Virus genome (UHGV): UHGV-0235457
DNA length: 38,103 nt
Source: a virus
Reading direction: 5' to 3' (one strand)
Part shown: in pieces, positions 1-38,103 of the stretch
How the letters are laid out: each line of letters starts with the position of its first letter
Numbering within the stretch: the first letter of the stretch is position 1
Notes under the pieces: model-generated
What the model was told of the DNA's origin: nothing
What the model saw: the letters and a program-made list of their open reading frames with translations, nothing else
Database searches by the model: none
Translations under genes and position numbers: made by a program

Positions 1-46
1 CCTCGGCGTTCGCGCTGTGCGGGTTCAAGTCCCGCTCCGGGTACCA
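1..46 (+). tRNA. leuZ: 3' 46 nt of a tRNA-Leu gene (UAA-type); 5' part lies upstream of the window
   Basis: T-arm GCGGG/TTCAAGT/CCCGC, acceptor 3' strand TCCGGGT, discriminator A and CCA; matches my recollection of the E. coli leuZ 3' end. Confidence 0.7.
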
Positions 47-91
47 TGGGAAAGATAAGAATAAAATCAAAGCAATAAGCAGTGTCGTGAA

Positions 92-113
92 ACCACCTTC
101 GGGTGGTTTTTTT
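92..113 (+). terminator. Rho-independent terminator downstream of the tRNA
   Basis: ACCACC-TTCG-GGTGGT hairpin followed by a T7 run; second copy at 36952-36973. Confidence 0.6.
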
Positions 114-586
114 GTATTTGTATTTTGTTAAATGGCGGTAAAGTGGCGATGGTGTGGCGATATGCAGAAATAATGATAGTACACGTCTGTTTAAACTCTA
201 AGGGTGAAGCAAAACTCTCCTGCAACTCATCTGCATTTCGCATATTGAACTAGGGCCTTGGTTAAACCAAAGTTTTTTCTGGGATCTTCCCACTCAACTT
301 CATTTTTCCTCCTACCATCCACCAAAAGGTGTCTGCGCTACTCTATCTTTTTTAATCTGACAACATCCTGAGAAAAAGACAAATTCGTTAGATTTACTGT
401 CTTTCTGCTGCCTCGAATGCTGATGTCTGCAGCACTGATAATAACTCTATCTCTTTGATATAGATCTTTTTTTTGATGAATTGCACGGCATATTATCGTG
501 ATGGCACCTTCTTGTTAAAGGTGTTGTACTCCTCATCTCGATTTTATGATGTGGGCTATGATTGGTTAGTAATAGAGTGTATCGGT

Positions 587-1057: not shown

Positions 1058-1198
1058 TTACTGCTTACACTGTAAGAACGCCGCAAACTCCGCTCCCCAG
1101 AAGCTCATCCGTATTTCACACAGCGAACCGTGCAGCATCCAGATGATGAGGATTACCGTCACGCAGAACGTGATGGCCGTAAGCGATTTTTGCGACAT
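1058..1198 (-). CDS. Hok/Gef-family type I toxin, 46 aa (below the ORF-track length cut-off)
   Basis: Hand translation MSQKSLTAITFCVTVILIIWMLHGSLCEIRMSFWGAEFAAFLQCKQ: N-terminal TM helix, conserved SLCE and AAFL-C motifs as I recall them from HokA; AAGGAG 7 nt upstream of ATG. Confidence 0.6.
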   Translation of the reverse strand: MSQKSLTAITFCVTVILIIWMLHGSLCEIRMSFWGAEFAAFLQCKQ

Positions 1199-2957: not shown

Positions 2958-4142
2958 ATGAGTGAAACTCGTTTTCATGGTGCCCGTGTTACGGAAAGTA
3001 CCGACCTGGTAACAGCGATTAATGATGTTGATTCCAGTGTTATCGGTATCGTGGCAACGGCGGATGATGCGGATGCGGAGCTGTTCCCGCTGAACAAGCC
3101 CACACTGCTGACCCGCGTCAATGACGTGCTGGGAAAATGCGGAACAACGGGGACGCTTTATCGTGCGCTTAAGGCCATCGCAGACCAGGTGAGCACAAAG
3201 GTGATCGTCGTTCGCGTGGCTGAACACAAAGAAGAAGACGGAAAAACGCAGGATCAACTGGTTATCGGTGGTTCTGAATCTGACGGCAGCTATACGGGGA
3301 TGTATGCGCTGCTTGTTGCAGAGCAGGATGAAAGCATCGGATACCGTCCGCGTATTCTGGCCGCGCCGGAGCTGGACACGGAGGCGGTAACAAAATCCCT
3401 GTGCGTGATTGCGGGTAAACTGCGCGCGTTTGTGTATGCCTCATGTCACGGCTGTAACACGATGGCTGAGGCGATGACCTACCGCCAGAAATTCAACGAA
3501 CGTGAGGTGATGCTCTTATGGCCGGACTTCATCGCCTACAACCCGAAAAGTGGCAAAAACGAAACGTTCCCCGCGCCTGCTTATGCGTGCGGCCTTCGTG
3601 CGTACATTGACCATGAGCAGGGATGGCACAAATCACTGTCCAACGTTCCGGTTAAAAATGTGCTGGGGATGTCGAGGCATGTGTTCTGGTCGTTGCAGGC
3701 CGAAGACAGTGATGCCAACAGCCTCAACAACAAAGAAATCACGACCATTATTCGTCGCAACGGGTTCCGCTTCTGGGGCAACCGCACACCGGAAACGAAC
3801 GCCTACATCTTTGAGGTGTACACCCGAACCGCACAGGTGCTGGCTGATTCAATTGCGGAAGCGCAGTTTGAAACCATCGACAGTCCACTGACGCCTGCGA
3901 ACGTGAAGGATGTTATCAGTGCCATCAGGGCAAAACTGGATTCACTGGTTACTGCCGGGAAACTGATTGGTGCGGAGTGCTGGTATGACGTGGTGGATAA
4001 CGGCACCACGAATTTACGTCAGGGGCGTGTGCGTATTCGCTACAAATATACGCCTGTTCCCCCGCTGGAAGACATGGAGCTTTACCAGTCGTTTACTGAT
4101 GAATTCTTTGGTCCCGCATTTGCGGTGCTGGGAGGTGCCTGA
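2958..4142 (+). CDS. Contractile tail sheath protein (P2 gpFI-like)
   Basis: 394 aa; DADAELFPLNKP and AIADQ motifs as recalled for P2 FI; AAGGGG RBS. Confidence 0.9.
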   Translation: MSETRFHGARVTESTDLVTAINDVDSSVIGIVATADDADAELFPLNKPTLLTRVNDVLGKCGTTGTLYRALKAIADQVSTKVIVVRVAEHKEEDGKTQDQLVIGGSESDGSYTGMYALLVAEQDESIGYRPRILAAPELDTEAVTKSLCVIAGKLRAFVYASCHGCNTMAEAMTYRQKFNEREVMLLWPDFIAYNPKSGKNETFPAPAYACGLRAYIDHEQGWHKSLSNVPVKNVLGMSRHVFWSLQAEDSDANSLNNKEITTIIRRNGFRFWGNRTPETNAYIFEVYTRTAQVLADSIAEAQFETIDSPLTPANVKDVISAIRAKLDSLVTAGKLIGAECWYDVVDNGTTNLRQGRVRIRYKYTPVPPLEDMELYQSFTDEFFGPAFAVLGGA

Positions 4143-4654
4143 TGGCTGTACCAAAACATCTTCGCTTTTTTACGCTGTTTGTGGATGGTGAAAACGAAGT
4201 GGGTAAAGTGACATCCGTCACGCCGCCCAAACTGACGCGCAAAACCGACAGCTATCGTGGTGGTGGCATGATGGGGGCAGTAAGTATTGATCTCGGTCTG
4301 GACGACTCCGCACTTGATGCGAGTTTTGTCATGGGGGGAGCTGTTCGTGCGCTGTTCCTTAAATATGGCGGCACGATTGACGGCACGCTGCTGCGTTTTG
4401 CGGGTGAATACTACACCGATGCAGAAAGCGATCTGTATGAAATCGAGATGCGCGGGCGTGTGACGGAAATTGATATGGGGGAAGCCAAACAGGGCGAAGC
4501 CACATCACACACTTACGCTGTCAAAAACACCTACTACAAGCTGAGCGTTAACGATCGCCCGCTGTGGGAAATCGACCTGTTGAACCACATCTACCGGAAG
4601 GACGGCAAGGACATTGTGCCTGACCGCATCCGTTCCGCGCTTGGGCTTGGCTGA
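4142..4654 (+). CDS. Tail tube protein (P2 gpFII-like)
   Basis: 170 aa; start overlaps sheath stop (TGATG); position after sheath. Confidence 0.85.
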   Translation: MAVPKHLRFFTLFVDGENEVGKVTSVTPPKLTRKTDSYRGGGMMGAVSIDLGLDDSALDASFVMGGAVRALFLKYGGTIDGTLLRFAGEYYTDAESDLYEIEMRGRVTEIDMGEAKQGEATSHTYAVKNTYYKLSVNDRPLWEIDLLNHIYRKDGKDIVPDRIRSALGLG

Positions 4655-4708
4655 TAAGTAATATGCAGGCGGCGCAGTGCGTTGCCTCTGACTGAAAGGA
4701 GTTTCCTG

Positions 4709-5074
4709 ATGAAAGAGACGAAAAACATCGATACCGAAAACACGGTAGTTGCTGACACTGTGAAAGAAACCAGTGAGCGTGGCGTAAAACTTACCCAACC
4801 AATTGAGCGAGGCGGCGAAAAAATCACGTATGTGGAGATCACCGGGGCTATTGAGCAGGCTGGATCTCTGCGAGATTTGTCGCTGTCTGATGTGCTGAAT
4901 CTGAAAGCGGAATCCATGTTTACGCTGCTGTCACGCGTGACATCACCGCGACTGGATGAAGTGACGATCAAAAAAATGGCATCCCGTGACTTTATTCAGT
5001 TATGTGTGGTTGCCGTAAATTTTTTGAGCGGTGCGGACTCTGGCGGGAAGAACGAACAGGCGACGGAAGCCTGA
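4709..5074 (+). CDS. Tail assembly chaperone (P2 gpE-like), zero-frame product
   Basis: ATG 4709 with AAAGGAG 8 nt upstream; lies between tube and tape-measure genes. Confidence 0.75.
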   Translation: MKETKNIDTENTVVADTVKETSERGVKLTQPIERGGEKITYVEITGAIEQAGSLRDLSLSDVLNLKAESMFTLLSRVTSPRLDEVTIKKMASRDFIQLCVVAVNFLSGADSGGKNEQATEA

Positions 5075-5238
5075 TCACGGTTGTGTGCTTTGAGTACATA
5101 GAAGACTTTGTGGCGGATATTGCCGCCATTTTTAACTGGTCGCCCGCCGAAATCTTCATGATGACGCCCGGCGAAGTGGTTAGCTGGCGTGAGCGGGCGG
5201 CACTTCGCAGCGGGAATGCAGACAATGAAGACTCTTGA
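4709..5238 (+). CDS. Tail assembly chaperone frameshift fusion product (gpE+E'-like); -1 shift at T_TTT_TTG 5020-5026
   Basis: Slippery heptamer in correct phase in the E frame; -1 frame stays open to 5238. Confidence 0.65.
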
Positions 5239-8032
5239 TATCCGGGTCGCTTTCAGCGCCGTTGACAGGCTGACCCGGCCTGCCGAAAACGCCCGCCGCC
5301 TGATGGGGCAGTTTGGTGACTCCATCCAGCGAACGCAGGGGGCGATCAAAAATCTCGAGCGTCAGGCGCGTTCATTTGAGCGCGCCCGCGACGCTGTCAG
5401 TAAAGCGGATGCGGGTATCGTGAAAGCACGACGCCAGCTTAACGCCCTTAATCAGTTACAACGCACGGGTACAGTGCTCAGCGAAAAACAACAAAAGCTG
5501 ATGCAGCAGTTAAGCACCCGGCTTGAACGCCTGAATGAATCGCGCACACGGGAAATTCAGAAAATGCGGGAACTTGGCGGAGAGCTGAAACGCCACGGCA
5601 TTTCCCTGACAGGCAGCGATAACACCATCCAGCAGGCCATCAGACGCACCGAACAGTACAACAACCAGCTTGAACGCGAACGGCAGGCGCTTGCGCGTGT
5701 AACGCGGGCGCGTGAGCGGTATTCGCGCGTGCAGGAAACAGCGGGAAAACTGAAAACAGGTGGTGCGCTGGCAATTGGTGCGGCAGCGGCTGGCGGCTAT
5801 GCTGCCGGGCGTTTTTTGCAGCCTGCGATCGGGTTCGGGAAAGAGATGTCCCGCGTTCAGGCACTGACGCGAATCGACAAAAACAGCCCGCAGTTTAAGG
5901 CGCTGCGTGAGCAGGCGTTAAAACTTGGCTCTGAAACGCAGTTCACCGCAGGCGATGCCGCCAGTGGGCAGGCATTTCTTGCAATGGCTGGCTTCACTCC
6001 GCAGGCCATTCAGGCTGCGCTTCCGGGCGTGCTGAGCATGGCAACGGCTGGCGGCATGGATCTCGGCGAGACGGCGGATATTGGCTCAAATATCCTGACG
6101 CAGTTCGGCCTTTCTGCTGACCAGATGGACCGGGTTGGCGACACGCTCACCGCAGCATTTACCCGTACCAACACTGACCTTCGCGCACTGGGCGAAACCA
6201 TGAAATATGCAGGTCCGGTGGCGGGTAAGCTGGGAATATCGCTGGAGCAGGCCGCAGCGATGGCGGGCGTGCTGGCGAATATGGGTATCAGGGGGAGTGA
6301 TGCCGGGACGGCAATGCGTGCCAGCCTGGCTCGTCTGGCATCACCGCCAAAGGCAGCAGCAGAGGCGCTGAAAGAGCTTGGTGTGGCAGTCTCTGACGCG
6401 AACGGCAAAATGCGCCCGATGGAGGATGTGCTGGCCGACCTTTATAAAGCCACCCGCAAATACGGGGAAGTTGACCGGGTATCGTTCTTTAAGGACATTG
6501 CCGGAGAAGAGGCTTTCACATCGTTTATGGCGCTCGTTGATGCAGCGGGTGACGGTTCCTTACCTAAACTGAGAAAAGAACTTGAAGGTGCGCGCGGTGA
6601 GGCTGAACGCACAGCAAAGGTTATGGCCAACAACCTTGACGGCGATCTGAAATCACTCGGCAGTGCATGGGAAGGGTTGCGCATCCGCATTGCAGATCTG
6701 ATTGACGGTCCGCTGCGTTCTGTCACGCAGTGGCTCACGCGGGTGGTATCAAGGGTGACGGCGCTGGCGCAGGCCCATCCAACACTGACGCGCCAGCTAC
6801 TGATAGCAGGCGGTGCGTTGCTGGCAATGACTGCAACGGTTGGCTCGTTGTCGCTGGCTATTGGTGTGCTTGCTGGCCCGCTGGCAAAACTGCGTCTTGG
6901 TTTTTCTCTCCTGACCGGATCAATGAATGCTGTCAGGGTCCTGCCAGCACTATGGGGAATGGTGACGGGTTCCGTTTCTTTGCTGGGAGGTGCTATCGGG
7001 GCGCTGTTCAGTCCGGTTGGTCTTATCGTGGCTGCGCTTGCCGGAGCTGCCGTTCTTATCTGGAAATACTGGGATCCCATCAGGGCATTTTTTGCCGGGG
7101 TGTTCAGTGGGATTATGGAGCGGCTGGCCCCGTTGCGTGAAACCTTTGAACGGTTTGGCCCTGTTTTTGACGCAATCGGAAGCGGGATCAGCCAGGTGTT
7201 TAACTGGTTTAAATCGCTGCTGTCACCGATGGAGTCCAGCAAGGAAACGTTGGATAAATGTACCAGTGCTGGCGAGATATTCGGTAACGTTCTTGGTGGC
7301 GCGTTACAGCTTGTTCTGACGCCTGCAAAAATGTTGCTGGATACGCTGGCGTGGATACTTGAAAAACTCGGTGTTCTTCCGGATGAAGCGGAAAGGGCGA
7401 GAAAGAAAATCGAAGACGCACAGCGTGCGGCCATTCTTCAGGACAAGGTTGCCTTGCTTCAGGGGGACCTGGCGAAAATCAATCCGCCGAAGCCTGTAGA
7501 AAATGGCAATGGCACCGGAGGTGATAACCCCAAAGACAATAAACCGCTCACAGACAGCAATACCGGTACGCTGCGCAGACTCAGCAAAATTGCTGATAAC
7601 ACAGGTAAGCTGGTTGAGGAGACGAAAAAACGCATTGGCCCCGGCGATATTGTCTTTAAAAACCTGCCCCGAGCACTTGCTGTTCGTGGGGAGTGGCAGG
7701 AGCGGAAGATTGCGCAGGTCAGTAAGCCTGCCCCCGCAATTAATATCACACCCGTGGTCCCGGCTCCGCTGCCTCCGGCGCTGGTCCCTGTTGTTGCGGC
7801 CAGCTCCCGTCCGGTGGCGGAGGCCATACGATCTCCAGTGGCATCAGTTCCTGTAACTTCCCGTAACCGGGAGCCTGTTGCCTCCGGATTTGGTGGTGAA
7901 ATTCATGTTCATCTGCATAACGTTGTTACGCAGAATCCCCGCGAACTGGCGAAACTGGTCGGTGAAATGGTCAGGGCAGAAATGGAACGGCGCGCCCGTG
8001 CCGGGCGTGGCAGTTTTTACGATAAAGATTGA
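5216..8032 (+). CDS. Tail tape measure protein (P2 gpT-like); start ambiguous (GTG 5189, ATG 5216 or 5225)
   Basis: 947-codon ORF, coiled-coil N-terminus, hydrophobic glycine-rich central segment; follows chaperone genes. Confidence 0.85.
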   Translation: MQTMKTLDIRVAFSAVDRLTRPAENARRLMGQFGDSIQRTQGAIKNLERQARSFERARDAVSKADAGIVKARRQLNALNQLQRTGTVLSEKQQKLMQQLSTRLERLNESRTREIQKMRELGGELKRHGISLTGSDNTIQQAIRRTEQYNNQLERERQALARVTRARERYSRVQETAGKLKTGGALAIGAAAAGGYAAGRFLQPAIGFGKEMSRVQALTRIDKNSPQFKALREQALKLGSETQFTAGDAASGQAFLAMAGFTPQAIQAALPGVLSMATAGGMDLGETADIGSNILTQFGLSADQMDRVGDTLTAAFTRTNTDLRALGETMKYAGPVAGKLGISLEQAAAMAGVLANMGIRGSDAGTAMRASLARLASPPKAAAEALKELGVAVSDANGKMRPMEDVLADLYKATRKYGEVDRVSFFKDIAGEEAFTSFMALVDAAGDGSLPKLRKELEGARGEAERTAKVMANNLDGDLKSLGSAWEGLRIRIADLIDGPLRSVTQWLTRVVSRVTALAQAHPTLTRQLLIAGGALLAMTATVGSLSLAIGVLAGPLAKLRLGFSLLTGSMNAVRVLPALWGMVTGSVSLLGGAIGALFSPVGLIVAALAGAAVLIWKYWDPIRAFFAGVFSGIMERLAPLRETFERFGPVFDAIGSGISQVFNWFKSLLSPMESSKETLDKCTSAGEIFGNVLGGALQLVLTPAKMLLDTLAWILEKLGVLPDEAERARKKIEDAQRAAILQDKVALLQGDLAKINPPKPVENGNGTGGDNPKDNKPLTDSNTGTLRRLSKIADNTGKLVEETKKRIGPGDIVFKNLPRALAVRGEWQERKIAQVSKPAPAINITPVVPAPLPPALVPVVAASSRPVAEAIRSPVASVPVTSRNREPVASGFGGEIHVHLHNVVTQNPRELAKLVGEMVRAEMERRARAGRGSFYDKD

Positions 8033-11266: not shown

Positions 11267-13564
11267 TTAAACGCTCGCTACATTATACCAGGTGCCATTT
11301 ATATACTTTTGAACGGGTCTGTAATAAACGCCCGCTATATTATCGGCAGAGTTGGCCCCTGTATCCTGAACATTAATACCAGACAATACATGACCTGACG
11401 GGCACTGGAAATTCCATGTTTGCCAGTTGTTCACTCCATAATATTGCTGTGAACCAAGTCGAACATCTTTCACATATCTGGAATCAAAATTGCCATAGTT
11501 GCCGGGAATAACTTGCGAGCCGCAAAGCCAGTTCCCGTTATTATCCATGTACGCCTGACCATCGGTACCATTGGCTGTCCTTGAGTTATTAATCATGTAG
11601 ATGCCAAATTGCTTATTCCCCAGTCCACCAATCATAAATTTGCGATCAGCGTGGTCCTGACGAAGTAATGCCTGCGCACCATCGGTGGATACCGCATTGC
11701 GTCCCAAAATAACATTCTGGTCACGCATATGAATCCACATGCCGGTACTACTGTTAATTGCAAAACGGTTTGCAAATATATCCCCTGTAACATCAAGACC
11801 ATGCCCCATGCTTATCCGACCAGTTCTAAGGTTAATCGTAAAGGGGCGTAATGGCCCTATATCACCATTTTCTCCCTCATTCTCTCGTGTAGGGATGATA
11901 TGCAGGCATTCTTCAGAACGGCGAAAAATGGCACCAAAAGATGAATTAAATATCCTCAGTGCATTGACTGTCGATATTTTTACTTCACTGCTGAAAAGGG
12001 CTTTAACAAGAACAGACAAAGCATCCCATTTAAGATTCATCAGGTCTTTTGTTGTGGTGCTTTGTTTGCTTCTCCATTTGAAATATTCATTGCCGTTGTC
12101 GCCTGTTTCAAACCACATGTATGAATCAGTGTCACCATCGGCATCATTTTTAAATCCAATCTTCGCCCAGTCAGTATTTCGAATCCAGGCAAGGATTGAG
12201 TCATTTTCAAAAGTAAGCCCACCGGACAAGGTATCGCCATTTTTTTGCACGGCGTTACCAGCCCTGTTTACCGTTTCCTGTAAACCGAGGTATTCGATAA
12301 CGGCAGCAACGGTCGATTTCGCAAGAATATCCCGCCCGACTTTTGTCAGGGTTGCCAGGCTGGCGACATCATTCCCCGTAAAATACGGAAACTTGTCTGC
12401 AGCAGTAGCAAGCCCGGCCAGCGCCGTCAGGGTGGCATCTTTCGGTTGCTTACCCGCAAGCGCGTTAGTCATGGTGGTCGCAAAATTCGGGTCGTTTCCC
12501 AGCGCCGCCGCTAACTCGTTCAGCGTATTCAGTGCGTCAGGTGACGAATCTACAAGGGCGGCAATCGCAGCCATAACGAAAGCCGTGCTTGCGATTTGGG
12601 TATTATTCGTTCCCTGTCGCGCAGTTGGCGTTGTTGGCGTTCCGGTCAACGCAGGACTGTTTAAGGGCGCTTTCTTGTTCGTTTCATCCATTACCGCCTT
12701 GACCGCTTTCGATGTCGCGGCCAGTGTTTCAGACGTGCTGTTGGTGGCACTACTGAGCTGGACTATCCCTTTTTGTGCCGTCGTGGCGTCCTGAGCGGTA
12801 TATTTTGCGTTAGCAAGGTCATACGCGGCCTTTACTGCTTTCGGCGTTGCAGCCTGCGTTTCAGACGTGCTGTTGGTTGCACTGCTGAGCTGGACTATCC
12901 CTTTTCGTGCCGTCGTGGCGTCCTGAGCGGTATATTTTCCGTTAGCCAGGTCATACGCGGCCTTAACCGCTTTCGGCGTTGCAGCCTGCGTTTCAGACAC
13001 GCTGTTAGTGGCGCTACTGAGTTGAACAAAGCCTTTTGCGTTCAGCGAGGCGTCCGGGTGACGTCGTGACTGTTCATGCTCTTTCAGTTTGTCATCCACG
13101 TAATCCACTGTGGCCATCACCATGGTGTTATCCACGGTAAGTGCCACGGTGGCAGTGCTGGATACGGTCAGAATGGTGCGAAATGTTTGTGCACGACCGG
13201 ACCCTTCGGCAACGGCTGGCTTGTAACTTTCGGCAGTATTGCCCACCGCGATTAAATCGCCGTGCTCATCAAATACACCAATTTCCCGGATCCAGAATCC
13301 GCCCGTTTCTGGAGGAATAACCAGCTCTGCAATAATGCGGTTCTGATGTGTTGCGTCCAGGATGACGCGATTAACAGTATGTCGCCACACCTCATGCACC
13401 AGACGGGTCTGCTTACTGTCTGGCGTGGGCAATGTACCGCCACCGTCGCCCACGGCCATATGAGTCAGGCGGACAGGCTTACCATCTGGCGCGGCTGCCT
13501 GAGCTAATTTTTTGGCACCCGTATCGGTGATAACGGTTTTAAATTTACGTGTTGTGGTACTCAT
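11267..13564 (-). CDS. Tail fibre protein (P2 gpH-like); constant N-terminal ~426 codons, variable C-terminus inside the invertible segment
   Basis: 765 aa; internal fibre repeats; crossover site at codons encoding [10 protein letters not shown]. Confidence 0.9.
12275..12300. other. Invertase crossover site (gix/hix-like) inside the fibre gene
   Basis: TTCCTGTAAACCGAGGTATTCGATAA, inverted relative to 9211-9236. Confidence 0.8.
12680..13030. repeat. Three tandem ~129-bp coding repeats in the fibre shaft (phage tail fibre repeat)
   Basis: Units encode [41 protein letters not shown]; near-identical DNA copies visible. Confidence 0.8.
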
Positions 13565-26025: not shown

Positions 26026-26340
26026 TCAGTCTCCTTTGATGCCAGTGTTTACAACCTGACAAGCCTCTTTGAGCACCCAGTCAACAGCGTCTTTCCATGC
26101 TCCGGTTTCGGCTGGCGGATTCTCACGCTTTACCAGTTCATAGAAATGTACTGCTCTAACCAGTCCATCTGACGGTTTTGCCTGTAGTGCAGCCTGAGCT
26201 ATGCGGTATGCCTGGAGCATACGGGCGTCGTTGATATCCATTCCGAACGGAATTTCTGATGATTGTGACTCTGCATCTTCAAGCCTGGCAATTTCTTTAC
26301 GTAAGAAGTATTTCAACTCTTGTTTCTGTTTTCTGTTCAT
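26026..26340 (-). CDS. Hypothetical protein
   Basis: 104 aa; overlaps upstream gene stop. Confidence 0.5.
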
Positions 26341-26669
26341 GCGTTTTTTTCCTTTTTGTCTGTCACTTCTTTCCTGATAATTTCATTGCACAAATCCACG
26401 CACTCATTGCAGATGTAAACAGACGGTCCGGCAATCACCTTTGTGACTTCGTACTGGGATTTATTGCAGAAACTGCAATAAACCGTCTTCTCGCCTGAAG
26501 TCCATGTTTTGCTGGTTTCGCCAGACATCAGTTGTTTGAGGTCTTTTTCACGACGAAGAACTATCTGGCCACATTCAGCTATTTTTTGGATGTTGACATT
26601 TTCTTCTTTCGCCAGCGCTTCCATCCGCTCAATCAGTCGCTGCGCTTTTTCTCTGTCAATGTGTTGCAT
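26337..26669 (-). CDS. Protein with C-terminal ClpX-type zinc-binding domain
   Basis: [38 protein letters not shown] closely parallels the ClpX N-domain C4 motif as recalled; AAGGGGGA RBS. Confidence 0.75.
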
Positions 26670-26732: not shown

Positions 26733-27044
26733 TTATTCGGGAAATAACGCCCGGATATTTCCGGCCATCTGACTGGTTATCTGTGCGGCTGATACTGGCT
26801 GTGACGCGGGGCGTTCTGTCCTGGTTTGTGTCATTGATAACGCCTCATCATCAGCCCATGCAGCCAGTCGGTAAGCCTCTGCCGGATTCATTTTCAGTAG
26901 TGCCAGCCCGGCCAGAAAAGCCACGCGTTGACCACTTTTGCGGGCTTCTGGTGTAAGGCTGTCCAGCCAGGCGCATGCTTCGCCTTCGTTCTTGACGGCG
27001 GCGGGCTTCAGATAGAAACTTATCCGTCTGGTTGGTGTCGTCAT
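26733..27044 (-). CDS. ParR-like centromere-binding adaptor
   Basis: Internal ATG 27044 with AAGGAG; RRISFYLKP, LDSLTPEARK, FLAGLAL and C-terminal IRALFPE parallel plasmid R1 ParR as recalled. Confidence 0.6.
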   Translation of the reverse strand: MTTPTRRISFYLKPAAVKNEGEACAWLDSLTPEARKSGQRVAFLAGLALLKMNPAEAYRLAAWADDEALSMTQTRTERPASQPVSAAQITSQMAGNIRALFPE

Positions 27045-27048
27045 TGGT

Positions 27049-28008
27049 TTACTCCTTGTCCATTGCGTACAGCCCATTAACCAGAGCAAACTGTGGCACC
27101 CCGTCCGCGATGAAAGTCGCATTAACTCCGCAGGCTTCGCGGATAGCGGGTGCCACAATCTCTGCCCCGCCACCGACAACCATCACCCGCCCGTAACCCG
27201 AAAAACCCGCCAGCGCGCGGATCACGCGTTGTTTCAGTGTTTCTTCCTTTTCACGAATAACCGCCATCAGGCTGGCGTAATGCGCGTCATTGTGGATGTG
27301 CTGGCGCAGCCAGGCTTCATCATGGCGATGTTCGATAATGGTATTGGCGATGTGGTGACTGGTACGCATACCGTTAGTGGCCATCACCGACAGTACGGCA
27401 TCGGCCATCAGGGAAACGCCTACGTGTGGATCGCAAAACACCTGGCTGATACCTGCCAGTTGTCCCTGAACCTTTGCCACATCCAGCGTGGTTCCGCCTA
27501 AATCCACAATCAGCAGGGATTCAAACGGACTCATGTCAGCCAGTGCTTTAAAACCAGCCGGTATGGATTCAGGCATAACCCGTACGTTACGGATAGTGAA
27601 TGCTTTTCCGTTCTGGTACGCCACCGGGCGCATGACGTTTGCTTTTTTGCGGTTGATGTTGGCTATGTCCGGCTGTGCGTTTGTGTCGAAATACTCGCTC
27701 AGTGGCAGGGTGACAACCACATCCACCTCCTGTGGCGTGATGCCTGATTTGACCAGCGCGTGATGAATGGCAATGACATTCACATCGCTGTACTGGTATT
27801 GCGTATCGGTCGTCTGGACAAAGCGATCGCTGACCGGATCAAAACCATAGCGCACGCCATCAAGCATGTAGTTCGCGGGCTGCGTGCCACCGAACGGCGC
27901 AGACCATTCCGACTTGAAGCTGTTCGGGCTGATGGCGTTGCGGCGTTCGCCGTTCTCAGTCCATGCCAGCTTGATGTTGGTGGAGCCGTCGTCGATACAA
28001 ATTTTCAT
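27049..28008 (-). CDS. ParM/StbA-like actin-family ATPase
   Basis: IDDGSTNIKL (phosphate 1), DLGGTTLD (phosphate 2), VVGGGA (adenosine) motifs; 319 aa; N-terminus parallels R1 ParM as recalled. Confidence 0.75.
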   Translation of the reverse strand: MKICIDDGSTNIKLAWTENGERRNAISPNSFKSEWSAPFGGTQPANYMLDGVRYGFDPVSDRFVQTTDTQYQYSDVNVIAIHHALVKSGITPQEVDVVVTLPLSEYFDTNAQPDIANINRKKANVMRPVAYQNGKAFTIRNVRVMPESIPAGFKALADMSPFESLLIVDLGGTTLDVAKVQGQLAGISQVFCDPHVGVSLMADAVLSVMATNGMRTSHHIANTIIEHRHDEAWLRQHIHNDAHYASLMAVIREKEETLKQRVIRALAGFSGYGRVMVVGGGAEIVAPAIREACGVNATFIADGVPQFALVNGLYAMDKE

Positions 28009-35743: not shown

Positions 35744-36745
35744 ATGTCGGTTCGTAAGATTCCATCAGGTAAATGGCTTTGCGAATGTTATCCCTACGGG
35801 GCATCGGGAAAACGCATTCGTAAACAGTTTGCGACAAAAAGTGAGGCGCTCTCTTATGAGCGCCGTTTAATGAATAGTAGAGTTGGAGACGAGTTTCAAG
35901 ATGGTTCTGGTCCTCGTCTTTCTGAGTTGATTGCTCGTTGGTTTGAGATGTACGGTAAAACCTTGTCCTCTGGTGCAGAGCGCAAAGTCAAACTTGAGGC
36001 GATTTGTTCCAGGCTGGGAGATCCATTTGCTTCTCAGTTTGACAAAAATATGTTTGCCACTTATCGGGAAAGAAGGCTATCAGGAGAATGGAATCCCAAG
36101 GGGAAGAAAAAACTTAGTGAAGCAACCGTTAATCGCGAGCAGTCATATCTACATGCTGTTTTTGCCGAACTGAAGCGCCTTGGGGAGTGGTCTGGTGAAA
36201 ACCCCCTGACTGGTATTCGCAAGTTTCGTGAGGAAGAAAAGGAACTGGCGTTTCTGTATGTAGATGAGATTGAACGCCTTCTGATTGCGTGTGATGAGTC
36301 ACGGAATAAAGATTTGGGGGTTGTTGTCCGTATTGGGCTTGCGACTGGTGCTCGGTGGAGTGAAGCAGAAGGATTAAAGCAATCTCAAGTACTGCCCGGT
36401 CGAATCACATTTGTTAAAACTAAAGGAAAGAAGAACCGCACTGTACCGATTTCACCTCAATTGCAGGCTATGCTTCCCAAAAAACGAGGAGCGCTATTTT
36501 CACCATGTTATGAGGCTTTTGACGCTGCAATTAAGAGAGCGAAGATCGAGCTTCCTGATGGGCAATTAACTCATGTGCTACGTCACACGTTTGCCAGTCA
36601 TTTTATGATGCGGGGCGGAAATATTCTTGTGTTGCAAAAAATACTGGGGCATAGCGATATAAAAATGACTATGCGTTATGCGCATTTTGCTCCAGGTCAT
36701 TTAGAGGCTGCTGTTGAATTGAACCCTTTTGACAATAGAGGGTAA
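35744..36745 (+). CDS. int: Tyrosine recombinase integrase, P2-like
   Basis: 333 aa; GKRIRKQF...SEA N-terminus, HVLRHTFASHF and MRYAHF motifs; adjacent to right att repeat. Confidence 0.9.
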   Translation: MSVRKIPSGKWLCECYPYGASGKRIRKQFATKSEALSYERRLMNSRVGDEFQDGSGPRLSELIARWFEMYGKTLSSGAERKVKLEAICSRLGDPFASQFDKNMFATYRERRLSGEWNPKGKKKLSEATVNREQSYLHAVFAELKRLGEWSGENPLTGIRKFREEEKELAFLYVDEIERLLIACDESRNKDLGVVVRIGLATGARWSEAEGLKQSQVLPGRITFVKTKGKKNRTVPISPQLQAMLPKKRGALFSPCYEAFDAAIKRAKIELPDGQLTHVLRHTFASHFMMRGGNILVLQKILGHSDIKMTMRYAHFAPGHLEAAVELNPFDNRG

Positions 36746-36860
36746 AAAGTGGCGATAAAAAGTGACAATAGATTCAAATGGCGTTGTATAGAGCCATTTT
36801 CAAAGTTAATAAAATCATAATGTTATGATTTATAAATGGTGGTTGATAGTTTTTAAAATC

Positions 36861-36906
36861 CCTCGGCGTTCGCGCTGTGCGGGTTCAAGTCCCGCTCCGG
36901 GTACCA
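36861..36906 (+). tRNA. Duplicated 3' fragment of tRNA-Leu at the right junction (partial, not a complete gene)
   Basis: Same 46 nt as 1-46 but preceded by phage sequence with only patchy tRNA similarity. Confidence 0.6.
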
Positions 36907-36979
36907 TGGGAAAGATAAGAATAAAATCAAAGCAATAAGCAGTGTCGTGAAACCACCTTCGGGTGGTTTTTTTGTATTT
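36861..36979. repeat. Right att direct repeat
   Basis: Identical to 1-119; similarity to the tRNA extends 9 bp further left (TTTAAAATC at 36852-36860). Confidence 0.85.
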
Positions 36980-37036
36980 TATTTTTCATTTCCGAAGATG
37001 CGTCCGAAGATGATTTTTCTCTGGACGCATCATCAT

Positions 37037-38083
37037 TCATTTTCTCTGGCCACCAACTACGGGCACTACTTTAACTTTTCGGTCATAGGCAGCTGTCTGT
37101 CGTGGGTTCTTATGCCCGGAAATTGCTTGCTTCTCTTCCAGGCTGCCTTCCAGATCAGAGATACCTTTTGCTTTCAGATCATGAAATGTGAAGTCTATTT
37201 GCAGATGAGGATATTTTTCCTGTGCTGCCGCTTTGACATCACGCCAACGAGAGTTAAAACCATCACGGGTATACTTGCCACCGGTAGTTTGATGAATCAC
37301 AAACAGGCTACTGATTCCCGTTTTTAATGGCAGAGAACGAGCCAGAGCTATCGCTTTCTGCAGACGAGGCGACCAGGCTTTGATTTGCTTAACGCCGGTT
37401 TTTCCCTGACGAATGTAGATCCCGGAATCGAACAGCTGGTCTTTCTGCAATGAAAGTACATCACTCTGTCTGGCCACGCATAAGTAGGCAATCTCCATTG
37501 CTACGCGAACAACATCAGGAGACACTTCATAAACGGCCTGATATTCTTCATCCGTAATATAGCGTTCGCGAGCTTTCTCTTTAAACTGTTTAACTCCCTG
37601 ACAAGGATTCCTCTGAACATAACCTCGTTCATAACCCCAACGGAATACCCGGGACATAAAGCTTTTTTCCCTGTTTGCCTGAGTTCGGCTTGATAAACCG
37701 CGTTGATCCATATAGCGCCGAATATGTTCAGGTTTGATTTTATCCGGGTCGATCTTCCCGAAGACAGGTAGAACTTTTCCGGAATATTTTGTGTAGTCTT
37801 TCCTGGTTTCGACTGCCAAATCCATAAAATCAGGGGAGGTCATGAATTGTTCCGTGAGCGCCTGAAAAGTATTTCTTTCTTTTTCGTCACCGACCGCTTT
37901 TTCATATGCCAGCCATACGGCTGATCGTGGCGCATCCAATGCGCACAGGCGTATCGCTTTGTTATCTTTATTCCTGAATTCGTAGGCCGCTTTGCCCTGG
38001 TAAACACGAGGCGGCATCCAGTTATCTGCTGGGTTCTTTCTCTTTCCGGCCATTAAATATTGCTCCAAAATCAGGTTCATCAT
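37037..38083 (-). CDS. Tyrosine recombinase integrase of a second integrative element
   Basis: 348 aa; HDLKAKG and AAYDR catalytic-region motifs; lies outside the right att repeat, 3' end facing the tRNA fragment. Confidence 0.8.
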   Translation of the reverse strand: MMNLILEQYLMAGKRKNPADNWMPPRVYQGKAAYEFRNKDNKAIRLCALDAPRSAVWLAYEKAVGDEKERNTFQALTEQFMTSPDFMDLAVETRKDYTKYSGKVLPVFGKIDPDKIKPEHIRRYMDQRGLSSRTQANREKSFMSRVFRWGYERGYVQRNPCQGVKQFKEKARERYITDEEYQAVYEVSPDVVRVAMEIAYLCVARQSDVLSLQKDQLFDSGIYIRQGKTGVKQIKAWSPRLQKAIALARSLPLKTGISSLFVIHQTTGGKYTRDGFNSRWRDVKAAAQEKYPHLQIDFTFHDLKAKGISDLEGSLEEKQAISGHKNPRQTAAYDRKVKVVPVVGGQRK

Positions 38084-38103
38084 CTTTTCGCGTCGTCACC
38101 TCC

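Follow-up and report, generated by a model that had tools for sequence, protein, structure and literature searches.

The right-hand end of the window (the entire 38,103-nt stretch of the virus genome UHGV-0235457 that was analysed) is best read, at a probability of about 0.88, as the boundary of two different temperate phages that lie head to tail at the 3′ half of leuZ, the Escherichia coli tRNA-Leu(UAA) gene. This agrees with the preliminary description, which had proposed tandem integrative elements at a single tRNA-Leu; the site is leuZ, and arrays with three copies of the shared core are found in E. coli strains 1439 and CEA601S. The neighbour of the P2-like prophage, which had been taken for an older island, is indeed a second element at the same tRNA but appears, from related genomes, to be a complete temperate phage genome and not an island. 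Tandem arrays at tRNA genes, both prophages, the integrase protein and the leuZ site are already known; the arrangement is an ordinary one and the structure itself, a textbook tandem array, matters little. For annotation it means that the boundary of the P2-like prophage is 36975 and not the end of the tRNA fragment, and that the right edge of the window falls inside a second prophage.

The core repeat and the layout of the leuZ site

The window starts within leuZ, at the 3′ strand of the anticodon stem. ARAGORN therefore found no tRNA in the window, and this blank was rejected as an argument against a tRNA site since leuZ is cut by the window start. The 27-nt 3′ end of the tRNA is present in two exact copies, at 20-46 and 36880-36906 (none expected). 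A repeat finder paired 1-126 with 36861-36986 at 98%; the right repeat of the preliminary description thus exists, but its extent had to be revised, as exact identity to the empty site of E. coli K-12 covers 36852-36975 (124 nt). This block opens with 55 nt of leuZ (TTTAAAA of the anticodon loop through CCA), continues with the 67-nt spacer RNA annotated in K-12 as 3′ETS-leuZ (b4759), terminator hairpin included, and ends in GT. The spacer is 100% identical at 47-113 and 36907-36973. A search of Rfam with 36700-37100 gave nothing close to gathering scores, and no model matched the 3′ETS-leuZ spacer. The features of the window are as follows.

1-115, plus strand: core copy 1, attL of the P2-like prophage (repeats, K-12 comparison), made up of the last 46 nt of leuZ (1-46), 3′ETS-leuZ (47-113) and GT
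116-36851, no strand: P2-like prophage of about 36.7 kb (a near-identical locus of strain 1439 is annotated as P2-family)
35744-36745, plus strand: P2-like integrase, 333 aa (Pfam; WP_001300279.1)
36852-36975, plus strand: core copy 2, a hybrid of the P2-like attR and the attL of the second prophage (124 nt identical to K-12), made up of a leuZ 3′ fragment (36852-36906), a complete 3′ETS-leuZ copy (36907-36973) and GT
36949-36970, plus strand: intrinsic terminator hairpin of the glyW-cysT-leuZ operon and of 3′ETS-leuZ (terminator scan and RNA fold)
36976-37036, no strand: attP arm of the second prophage beside int, the P′ arm (sequence comparison with EC28)
36991-37000 and 37003-37012: tandem 10-mers TCCGAAGATG, candidate arm-type integrase sites
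37037-38053, minus strand: integrase of the second, probably resident, prophage, most likely 338 aa from Met11 (ORF, Pfam, homologue alignment)
38022-38103, minus strand: 3′ end of a DUF4224/excisionase-like gene that overlaps the start of int (open frame, stop at 38022)
Third core copy, expected beyond the window: TTTAAAATCCC...TTTTTTTGT, with GCCTGCAACTTG and yecA to follow

Core copy 2 is flanked on its left by P2-like DNA and on its right by sequence 100% identical to the second prophage of strain EC28. The window holds two core copies, both integrases and, of the second element, the left boundary only; it stops at 38103, 20 bp past the longest integrase ORF, and the third core and the phage modules were seen in relatives. 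Three complete genomes contain the second element flanked on both sides by the 124-125 nt core.

1439: pgsA-glyW-cysT-leuZ (intact), P2-like prophage, core copy 2, 42.6-kb prophage, core copy 3, yecA-tyrP
CEA601S: three-copy array as in 1439, with 20.5 kb left of the second element and 111 nt left of its integrase
EC28: second prophage alone, about 45 kb, between intact leuZ and yecA

Strain 1439 is 99% identical to the window across the junction and both integrases, and the position there that is equivalent to core copy 1 is the 3′ part of an annotated intact tRNA-Leu after glyW-cysT. Its core copy 3 (124 nt) is 100% identical to copy 2. The further copy of the tRNA 3′ end for which the preliminary description had suggested looking is thus found downstream in both 1439 and CEA601S, behind the 42.6-kb and the 20.5-kb element, respectively. 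The second prophage of 1439 starts with this integrase, DUF4224, repressor/Cro-like genes, a helicase and Q, and continues with holins, endolysin, terminase, portal, protease, decoration and capsid genes, with a lambda-like head and a contractile tail; one tail gene is split into 453 nt and a 282-nt hypothetical ORF, compared with 1044 nt in EC28. In EC28 the only gene of the second prophage flagged as a pseudogene is that for the portal. The modules annotated in 1439 and EC28 together are regulation, replication, Q, lysis, terminase, portal, capsid, baseplate, sheath and tube. EC28 is 100% identical to the window over 36852-38103 (1252 nt; core, arm and int). In CEA601S the P2-like int beside the decayed element is full-length.

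The empty site, a comparison also suggested earlier, is that of K-12, in which leuZ, 3′ETS and yecA are contiguous and leuZ thus stands directly beside yecA. Counts were made in 5426 complete E. coli genomes, and in an evenly spaced sample of 60 rows the site was empty, as in K-12, in 42 and occupied in 17 (about 70% and 28%). The second integrase adjoins the core in 429 of the 5426 genomes and the P2-like integrase in 506; in most of the genomes of either set the respective phage is alone at leuZ. The hybrid junction between the P2-like and the second phage occurs in two of the 5426, namely 1439 and CEA601S, each with three core copies, and a synthetic junction of the reverse order (second phage, core, P2-like arm) in none. 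An exact search with the 171-nt hybrid junction gave no matches in metagenome contigs or in species-representative genomes. A third element, found at leuZ in 532 genomes, is an island that encodes a 'site-specific integrase' of roughly 400 aa together with restriction and other defence genes; it too forms tandem arrays with a P2-like element on the tRNA side, as in FORC_031. leuZ is thus a crowded E. coli integration site used by at least three integrase lineages that are mutually unrelated (P2-like, mEp390-like and that of the leuZ island).

Arrays of this kind are well documented. Islander lists 125 arrays of two or more elements and 2083 anticodon-centred attP sites (PMC4383910), and leuZ is among the conserved sites of prophages and other elements in STEC O121:H19 and O145:H28 (PMC8767318, PMC7067040); the relevant passages of the latter two papers give leuZ as the site and leave the pairing of a P2-like with the second phage unmentioned. 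The leuZ array does not differ in kind from the tRNA/tmRNA arrays of Islander/TIGER or from the sublocation classes of Williams 2002: the tRNA gene is intact at one end, each element contributes a single displaced 3′ fragment and a single integrase, the fragments all point the same way and the start of the identity block is anticodon-centred. Particular to leuZ are the length of the identity block, which extends 69 nt beyond the tRNA and takes in a regulatory RNA that has been characterised, and the presence of three unrelated integrase lineages at one site.

The two integrases and their relatives

The preliminary description had placed a P2-like integrase inside the right repeat. The gene at 35744-36745 bears this out, as its product matches Int_N (PF24624; 111 bits, E 5e-32) and Phage_integrase (PF00589; 79.9 bits), and it is the closing gene of a repressor-int operon directed at core copy 2, inside the right repeat. 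The first consensus terminator downstream of it is the spacer hairpin at 36949-36970. The int/att end of the prophage is 97.8% identical to Escherichia phage 520873, while int and core together are 99.9% identical to copies in O103, O45 and O121 STEC and 99.7% identical to those in O145. The near-identical locus of 1439 carries P2-family annotations for capsid, GpO, GpM, Ogr and replication endonuclease, and an Ogr_Delta match is present in the window at 1388-1648. By homology, therefore, the first integrase is assigned to the P2 family, at the end of the prophage beside att and together with P2-type structural genes. Candidate arm-type repeats GTGGCGAT are located at 143, 154 and 36749; the motif has 8 matches in the window (1.7 expected), 3 of which lie within about 110 nt of the core. 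As for those integrases of the HP1/P2 family that have long attP-attB identity at tRNA genes, the attP of the P2-like phage duplicates a long stretch of host tRNA-operon sequence. HP1 shares about 180 bp between attP and attB at a tRNA-Leu operon, whereas the core of P2 itself is short and not in a tRNA gene.

The second integrase was originally described as a different tyrosine integrase of 348 aa on the minus strand, encoded about 60 bp beyond the repeat with its 3′ end facing the tRNA fragment. Family, strand and position stand, the stop codon being 61 bp past the identity block, but the length probably does not. The longest ORF (37037-38083, minus strand) does encode 348 aa, but the product is probably one of 338 aa (37037-38053), because every phage homologue, and also the RefSeq protein WP_001531780.1 (1017 nt), begins at the residue equivalent to Met11, and a GGAG read from the sequence lies nine bases upstream of Met11. 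The protein matches PF00589 (34.9 bits against a cut-off of 27.1; residues 175-335) and Phage_int_M (PF22022; 31.4 bits), its residues 1-70 have no Pfam match, and it aligns to lambda Int structures (E 1.5e-9). It shares 27% identity with the P2-like integrase over 123 residues, which indicates that the two belong to distinct lineages. The second integrase is a full-length tyrosine integrase and not a fragment, a possibility that had been raised earlier.

In the alignment with lambda Int (348-aa numbering) H301 falls on His308, K304 on Arg311 and H324 on His333, R205 was put on Arg212 by eye, and Y333, which lies past the end of the printed alignment, is equated with Tyr342 on the basis of its invariance among the aligned phage integrases and of the lambda sequence. 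R205, H301, H324 and Y333 are present and invariant, while the Arg-II position is occupied by a lysine (K304, in the motif HDLK). This looks like a family trait and not damage, because HDLK is invariant in all four phage integrases aligned, with the lysine kept in ZF40, mEp390 and ST64B.

The second integrase is 63% identical over its full length to the integrases of phages ZF40 (Pectobacterium), mEp390 and Fostie (both of E. coli), and 48% identical to that of Salmonella phage ST64B. The first three were found by protein search; megablast of the integrase gene against the phage collection gave no match. Phage ZF40 is recorded as coming from an induced lysogen. The annotated attP of mEp390 is a diverged leuZ 3′ half plus spacer, which starts from ATTTAAAA of the anticodon loop and lies immediately past the int 3′ end, oriented as in the window. 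Fostie has a diverged copy of the same core and ZF40 the tRNA part only. These sequences lend independent support to the assignment of leuZ as the target of the second integrase lineage.

The likeness extends to the surroundings of the gene. In mEp390, ZF40 and Fostie, as here, the excisionase gene overlaps the start of int and HDLK is invariant. In the window the DUF4224 frame on the minus strand is open as far as the end, i.e. for the last 82 bases; a DUF4224 gene is annotated at the same place in 1439 and EC28, and its homologue in ZF40, mEp390 and ST64B is an excisionase. Direct repeats stand between int and core in mEp390 too, with four copies of ATGGCGAA compared with the two of TCCGAAGATG in the window, but the arm repeats are unlike those of the window in sequence. 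The GTGGCGAT and TCCGAAGATG repeats presumably bind the respective integrases. The cores of mEp390 and Fostie share no more than about 87% identity with their E. coli counterpart, and that of mEp390 has a compensatory T-stem change and an altered spacer. mEp390 belongs to the Hendrixvirinae and has an HK022-like tail fiber gene, whereas the second prophage has lambda-like head and contractile tail genes.

Integration at leuZ and the order of arrival

We propose that the attP of each phage holds a 124-125 nt copy of host sequence that runs from the leuZ anticodon loop through CCA to 3′ETS-leuZ and its terminator, so that integration by a tyrosine integrase would rebuild leuZ, the spacer and the operon terminator and leave the displaced copy at the far end. 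Two successive integrations would give three direct copies of the core. The middle one (36852-36975) would then have the P2-like arm on its left and the int-proximal arm of the second phage on its right, followed by int and the excisionase gene. Each phage should be able to excise by means of its own pair of core copies.

Strand exchange would take place near the anticodon loop. The identity block starts within this loop for both phages, at TTTAAAA for the P2-like phage and at ATTTAAAA for the second, and an anticodon-centred start is a common class in the Islander catalogue (PMC4383910). Since all core copies of the window are identical, they reveal neither where the crossover took place nor which phage came first; bounds on the crossover come from other strains with variant cores. 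In the element-bearing strains XD35 and FORC_031 the tRNA-proximal copy has the element's own sequence variants. The intact leuZ of XD35 bears the 3′ half of its island, with a compensatory T-stem change and a variant spacer, which places the exchange 5′ of about position 30 of the block. A comparison of ETEC strains with and without the P2-like element revealed a P2-like-type spacer in the tRNA-proximal copy and an island-type spacer in the next, which places the P2-like crossover 5′ of about position 64.

The preliminary description had left it open whether the prophage inserted between the tRNA and a resident element or the reverse. One order is now probable, though not proven: the second phage was probably the resident and the P2-like phage integrated later, into the regenerated leuZ. 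This order is favoured on four grounds. It is the second phage that has decayed in CEA601S and that has a split tail gene in 1439. Genomes identical to the window over the second integrase carry the second phage alone. Every array seen has its P2-like element on the side of the tRNA, and no example of the opposite arrangement was found. Finally, only the regenerated tRNA retains the left half-site in the anticodon stem. The strict rule that the tRNA-proximal element is the youngest was dropped, as a newcomer may use either regenerated core (PMC7192596) and position alone therefore does not date the elements. The chronology is thus based on the state of decay and on relatives with a single prophage, and it is not settled, since either core can be used and the arrays are few.

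The opposite history, in which the P2-like phage came first and the second phage entered the displaced core at the P2-like attR, is possible, if appreciably less probable. It would end in the same structure, a second element is free to enter either regenerated core (PMC7192596), and the P2-like phage is slightly the commoner of the two at leuZ (506 compared with 429 genomes). The displaced core, however, is without the 5′ strand of the anticodon stem, so that the core would be missing its half-site left of the loop. It is also the second phage that is decayed in CEA601S and, in part, in 1439, and EC28, A42 and ECO20/21, all identical to the window over the second integrase, carry this phage alone.

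The reading as a junction of two prophages would need amending if the second integrase in the source genome were an orphan or belonged to a short remnant of the resident element. The window sequence does end at 38103 and the resident element of CEA601S has decayed to 20.5 kb, but we consider this unlikely, as the integrase ORF is intact, the excisionase frame is open to the end of the window and the window matches EC28 at 100% over 36852-38103, behind which EC28 has a 45-kb prophage.

Very unlikely is the arrival of both elements as one block, whether the leuZ-yecA region was imported whole (homologous recombination, transduction) or a composite circle, released by way of the outer cores, was integrated. 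Three identical cores would permit composite excision and the flanking core genes homologous import. The window, however, combines a second phage of the EC28 type (100%) with a P2-like phage closest to those of STEC (99.9%), and 1439 and CEA601S pair other variants, an indication that the arrays were assembled independently. At about 80 kb, a composite would also be too large for the capsid of either phage. That the integrase targets another site, e.g. the leuZ-yecA intergenic region, and adjoins the tRNA fragment by chance is extremely improbable, as it has nothing in its favour beyond the 61-bp gap between core and gene, while in three genomes the 124-125 nt core stands at either end of the element, mEp390 has the leuZ 3′ half as its annotated attP, and the core sequence is present, in part or in full, in the genomes of ZF40 and Fostie.

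The 3′ETS-leuZ sponge in the shared core

The shared core of the leuZ elements contains the complete 3′ETS-leuZ RNA, which is described as a sponge for the small RNAs RyhB and RybB (Lalaouna et al. 2015). Raised levels of the spacer deplete RyhB (PMC6191717). The shared core thus duplicates a dosage-sensitive sponge, and the elements would exchange the expressed copy. A literature search linking 3′ETS-leuZ to prophage att sites yielded incidental co-mentions only, and no published description of the whole RyhB/RybB sponge within the shared core was found.

It is conceivable, although unlikely, that the leuZ elements replace the expressed sponge with a copy of their own and leave extra copies behind, and that P2-like lysogens make more of the sponge. 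The P2-like repressor-int operon has the copy at 36907-36973 at its 3′ end, in sense orientation. Were the repressor-int transcript processed like a tRNA precursor, more sponge would be released and the thresholds for RyhB and RybB would shift; this would amount to lysogenic conversion through a host regulatory RNA.

Variant copies of the spacer are found in the leuZ island and in the mEp390 attP. The RyhB/spacer duplex given by RNAduplex was over-extended, as intramolecular structure is ignored, and only the central pairing stretch was used. This predicted RyhB-pairing stretch (about nt 24-43 of the spacer) is unchanged in the K-12-type core of both prophages and in the island variants, and altered in the mEp390 attP.

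A third element type at leuZ

The leuZ core, comprising the 3′ part of the tRNA gene and the adjoining spacer that encodes 3′ETS-leuZ, is also used by a third type of element, an island with a site-specific integrase of roughly 400 amino acid residues. The island was found in 532 of the 5426 complete E. coli genomes searched and its cargo includes type I restriction, DUF262 and Hhe anti-phage genes. Two examples are listed below.

Regions showing the leuZ island in two E. coli strains
24714-49901 of locus L010: leuZ island of strain FORC_031
2979-5330 of locus L011: leuZ island of strain XD35

The leuZ 3′ half and spacer carried by the island are sequence variants, with the copy in XD35 including a compensatory change in the T-stem. 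As the island core copy differs in sequence, carriers are predicted to express an element-derived tRNA 3′ half together with a variant of the sponge RNA.

The 3′ETS-leuZ spacer in the att core

The 67-nt 3′ETS-leuZ, a sponge RNA for RyhB and RybB (K-12 locus b4759), lies entirely within the att core, with copies at 47-113 and 36907-36973 that are 100% identical to the K-12 sequence. The latter is in the sense orientation, 3′ of the repressor-int operon of the P2-like prophage, and the first consensus terminator after this operon is the hairpin of 3′ETS-leuZ itself (36949-36970). In strain EC28 the displaced core, which adjoins yecA (about position 47127 of locus L004), has a C-to-T change within the part of the spacer predicted to pair with RyhB; the expressed spacer copy, beside leuZ, is of the K-12 type.

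Putative integrase-binding sites and the second integrase

Short direct repeats flank the core. Three copies of GTGGCGAT, which occurs 8 times across the window compared with 1.7 expected, are divided between the two P2-like att arms (143-161 and 36749-36756). TCCGAAGATG is found twice in the stretch that separates the core from the second integrase gene (36991-37012). Each repeat is a candidate arm-type site for integrase binding. Where tyrosine recombinases usually have H-x-x-R, the second integrase reads HDLK (H301-K304 of the 348-residue ORF; 37172-37183, minus strand), with lysine in place of the second catalytic arginine. Phages ZF40, mEp390 and ST64B all have this motif unchanged in their integrases.

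Other genes of the P2-like prophage

The plasmid-type partition genes (26733-28008, minus strand) encode Plasmid_stab_B and a ParM-like ATPase, the latter label being taken from the annotation of strain 1439, which has in addition an S8 peptidase and AAA ATPase pair just past these genes, adjoining the portal gene. This region is a variable cargo hotspot. A 110-residue ORF in the variable region (26337-26669, minus strand) has a ClpX-type C4 zinc finger (Pfam E-value 7e-18) as its only recognisable feature, and its product may be a ClpX decoy or adaptor. Near the tRNA-proximal end, a 46-residue Hok/Gef-family toxin ORF (1058-1198, minus strand) adjoins the Ogr/Delta activator gene (1388-1648). 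The 765-residue tail-fibre-like ORF (11267-13564, minus strand) contains a 132-nt tandem duplication (12696-12959), the two copies of which are 90% identical.
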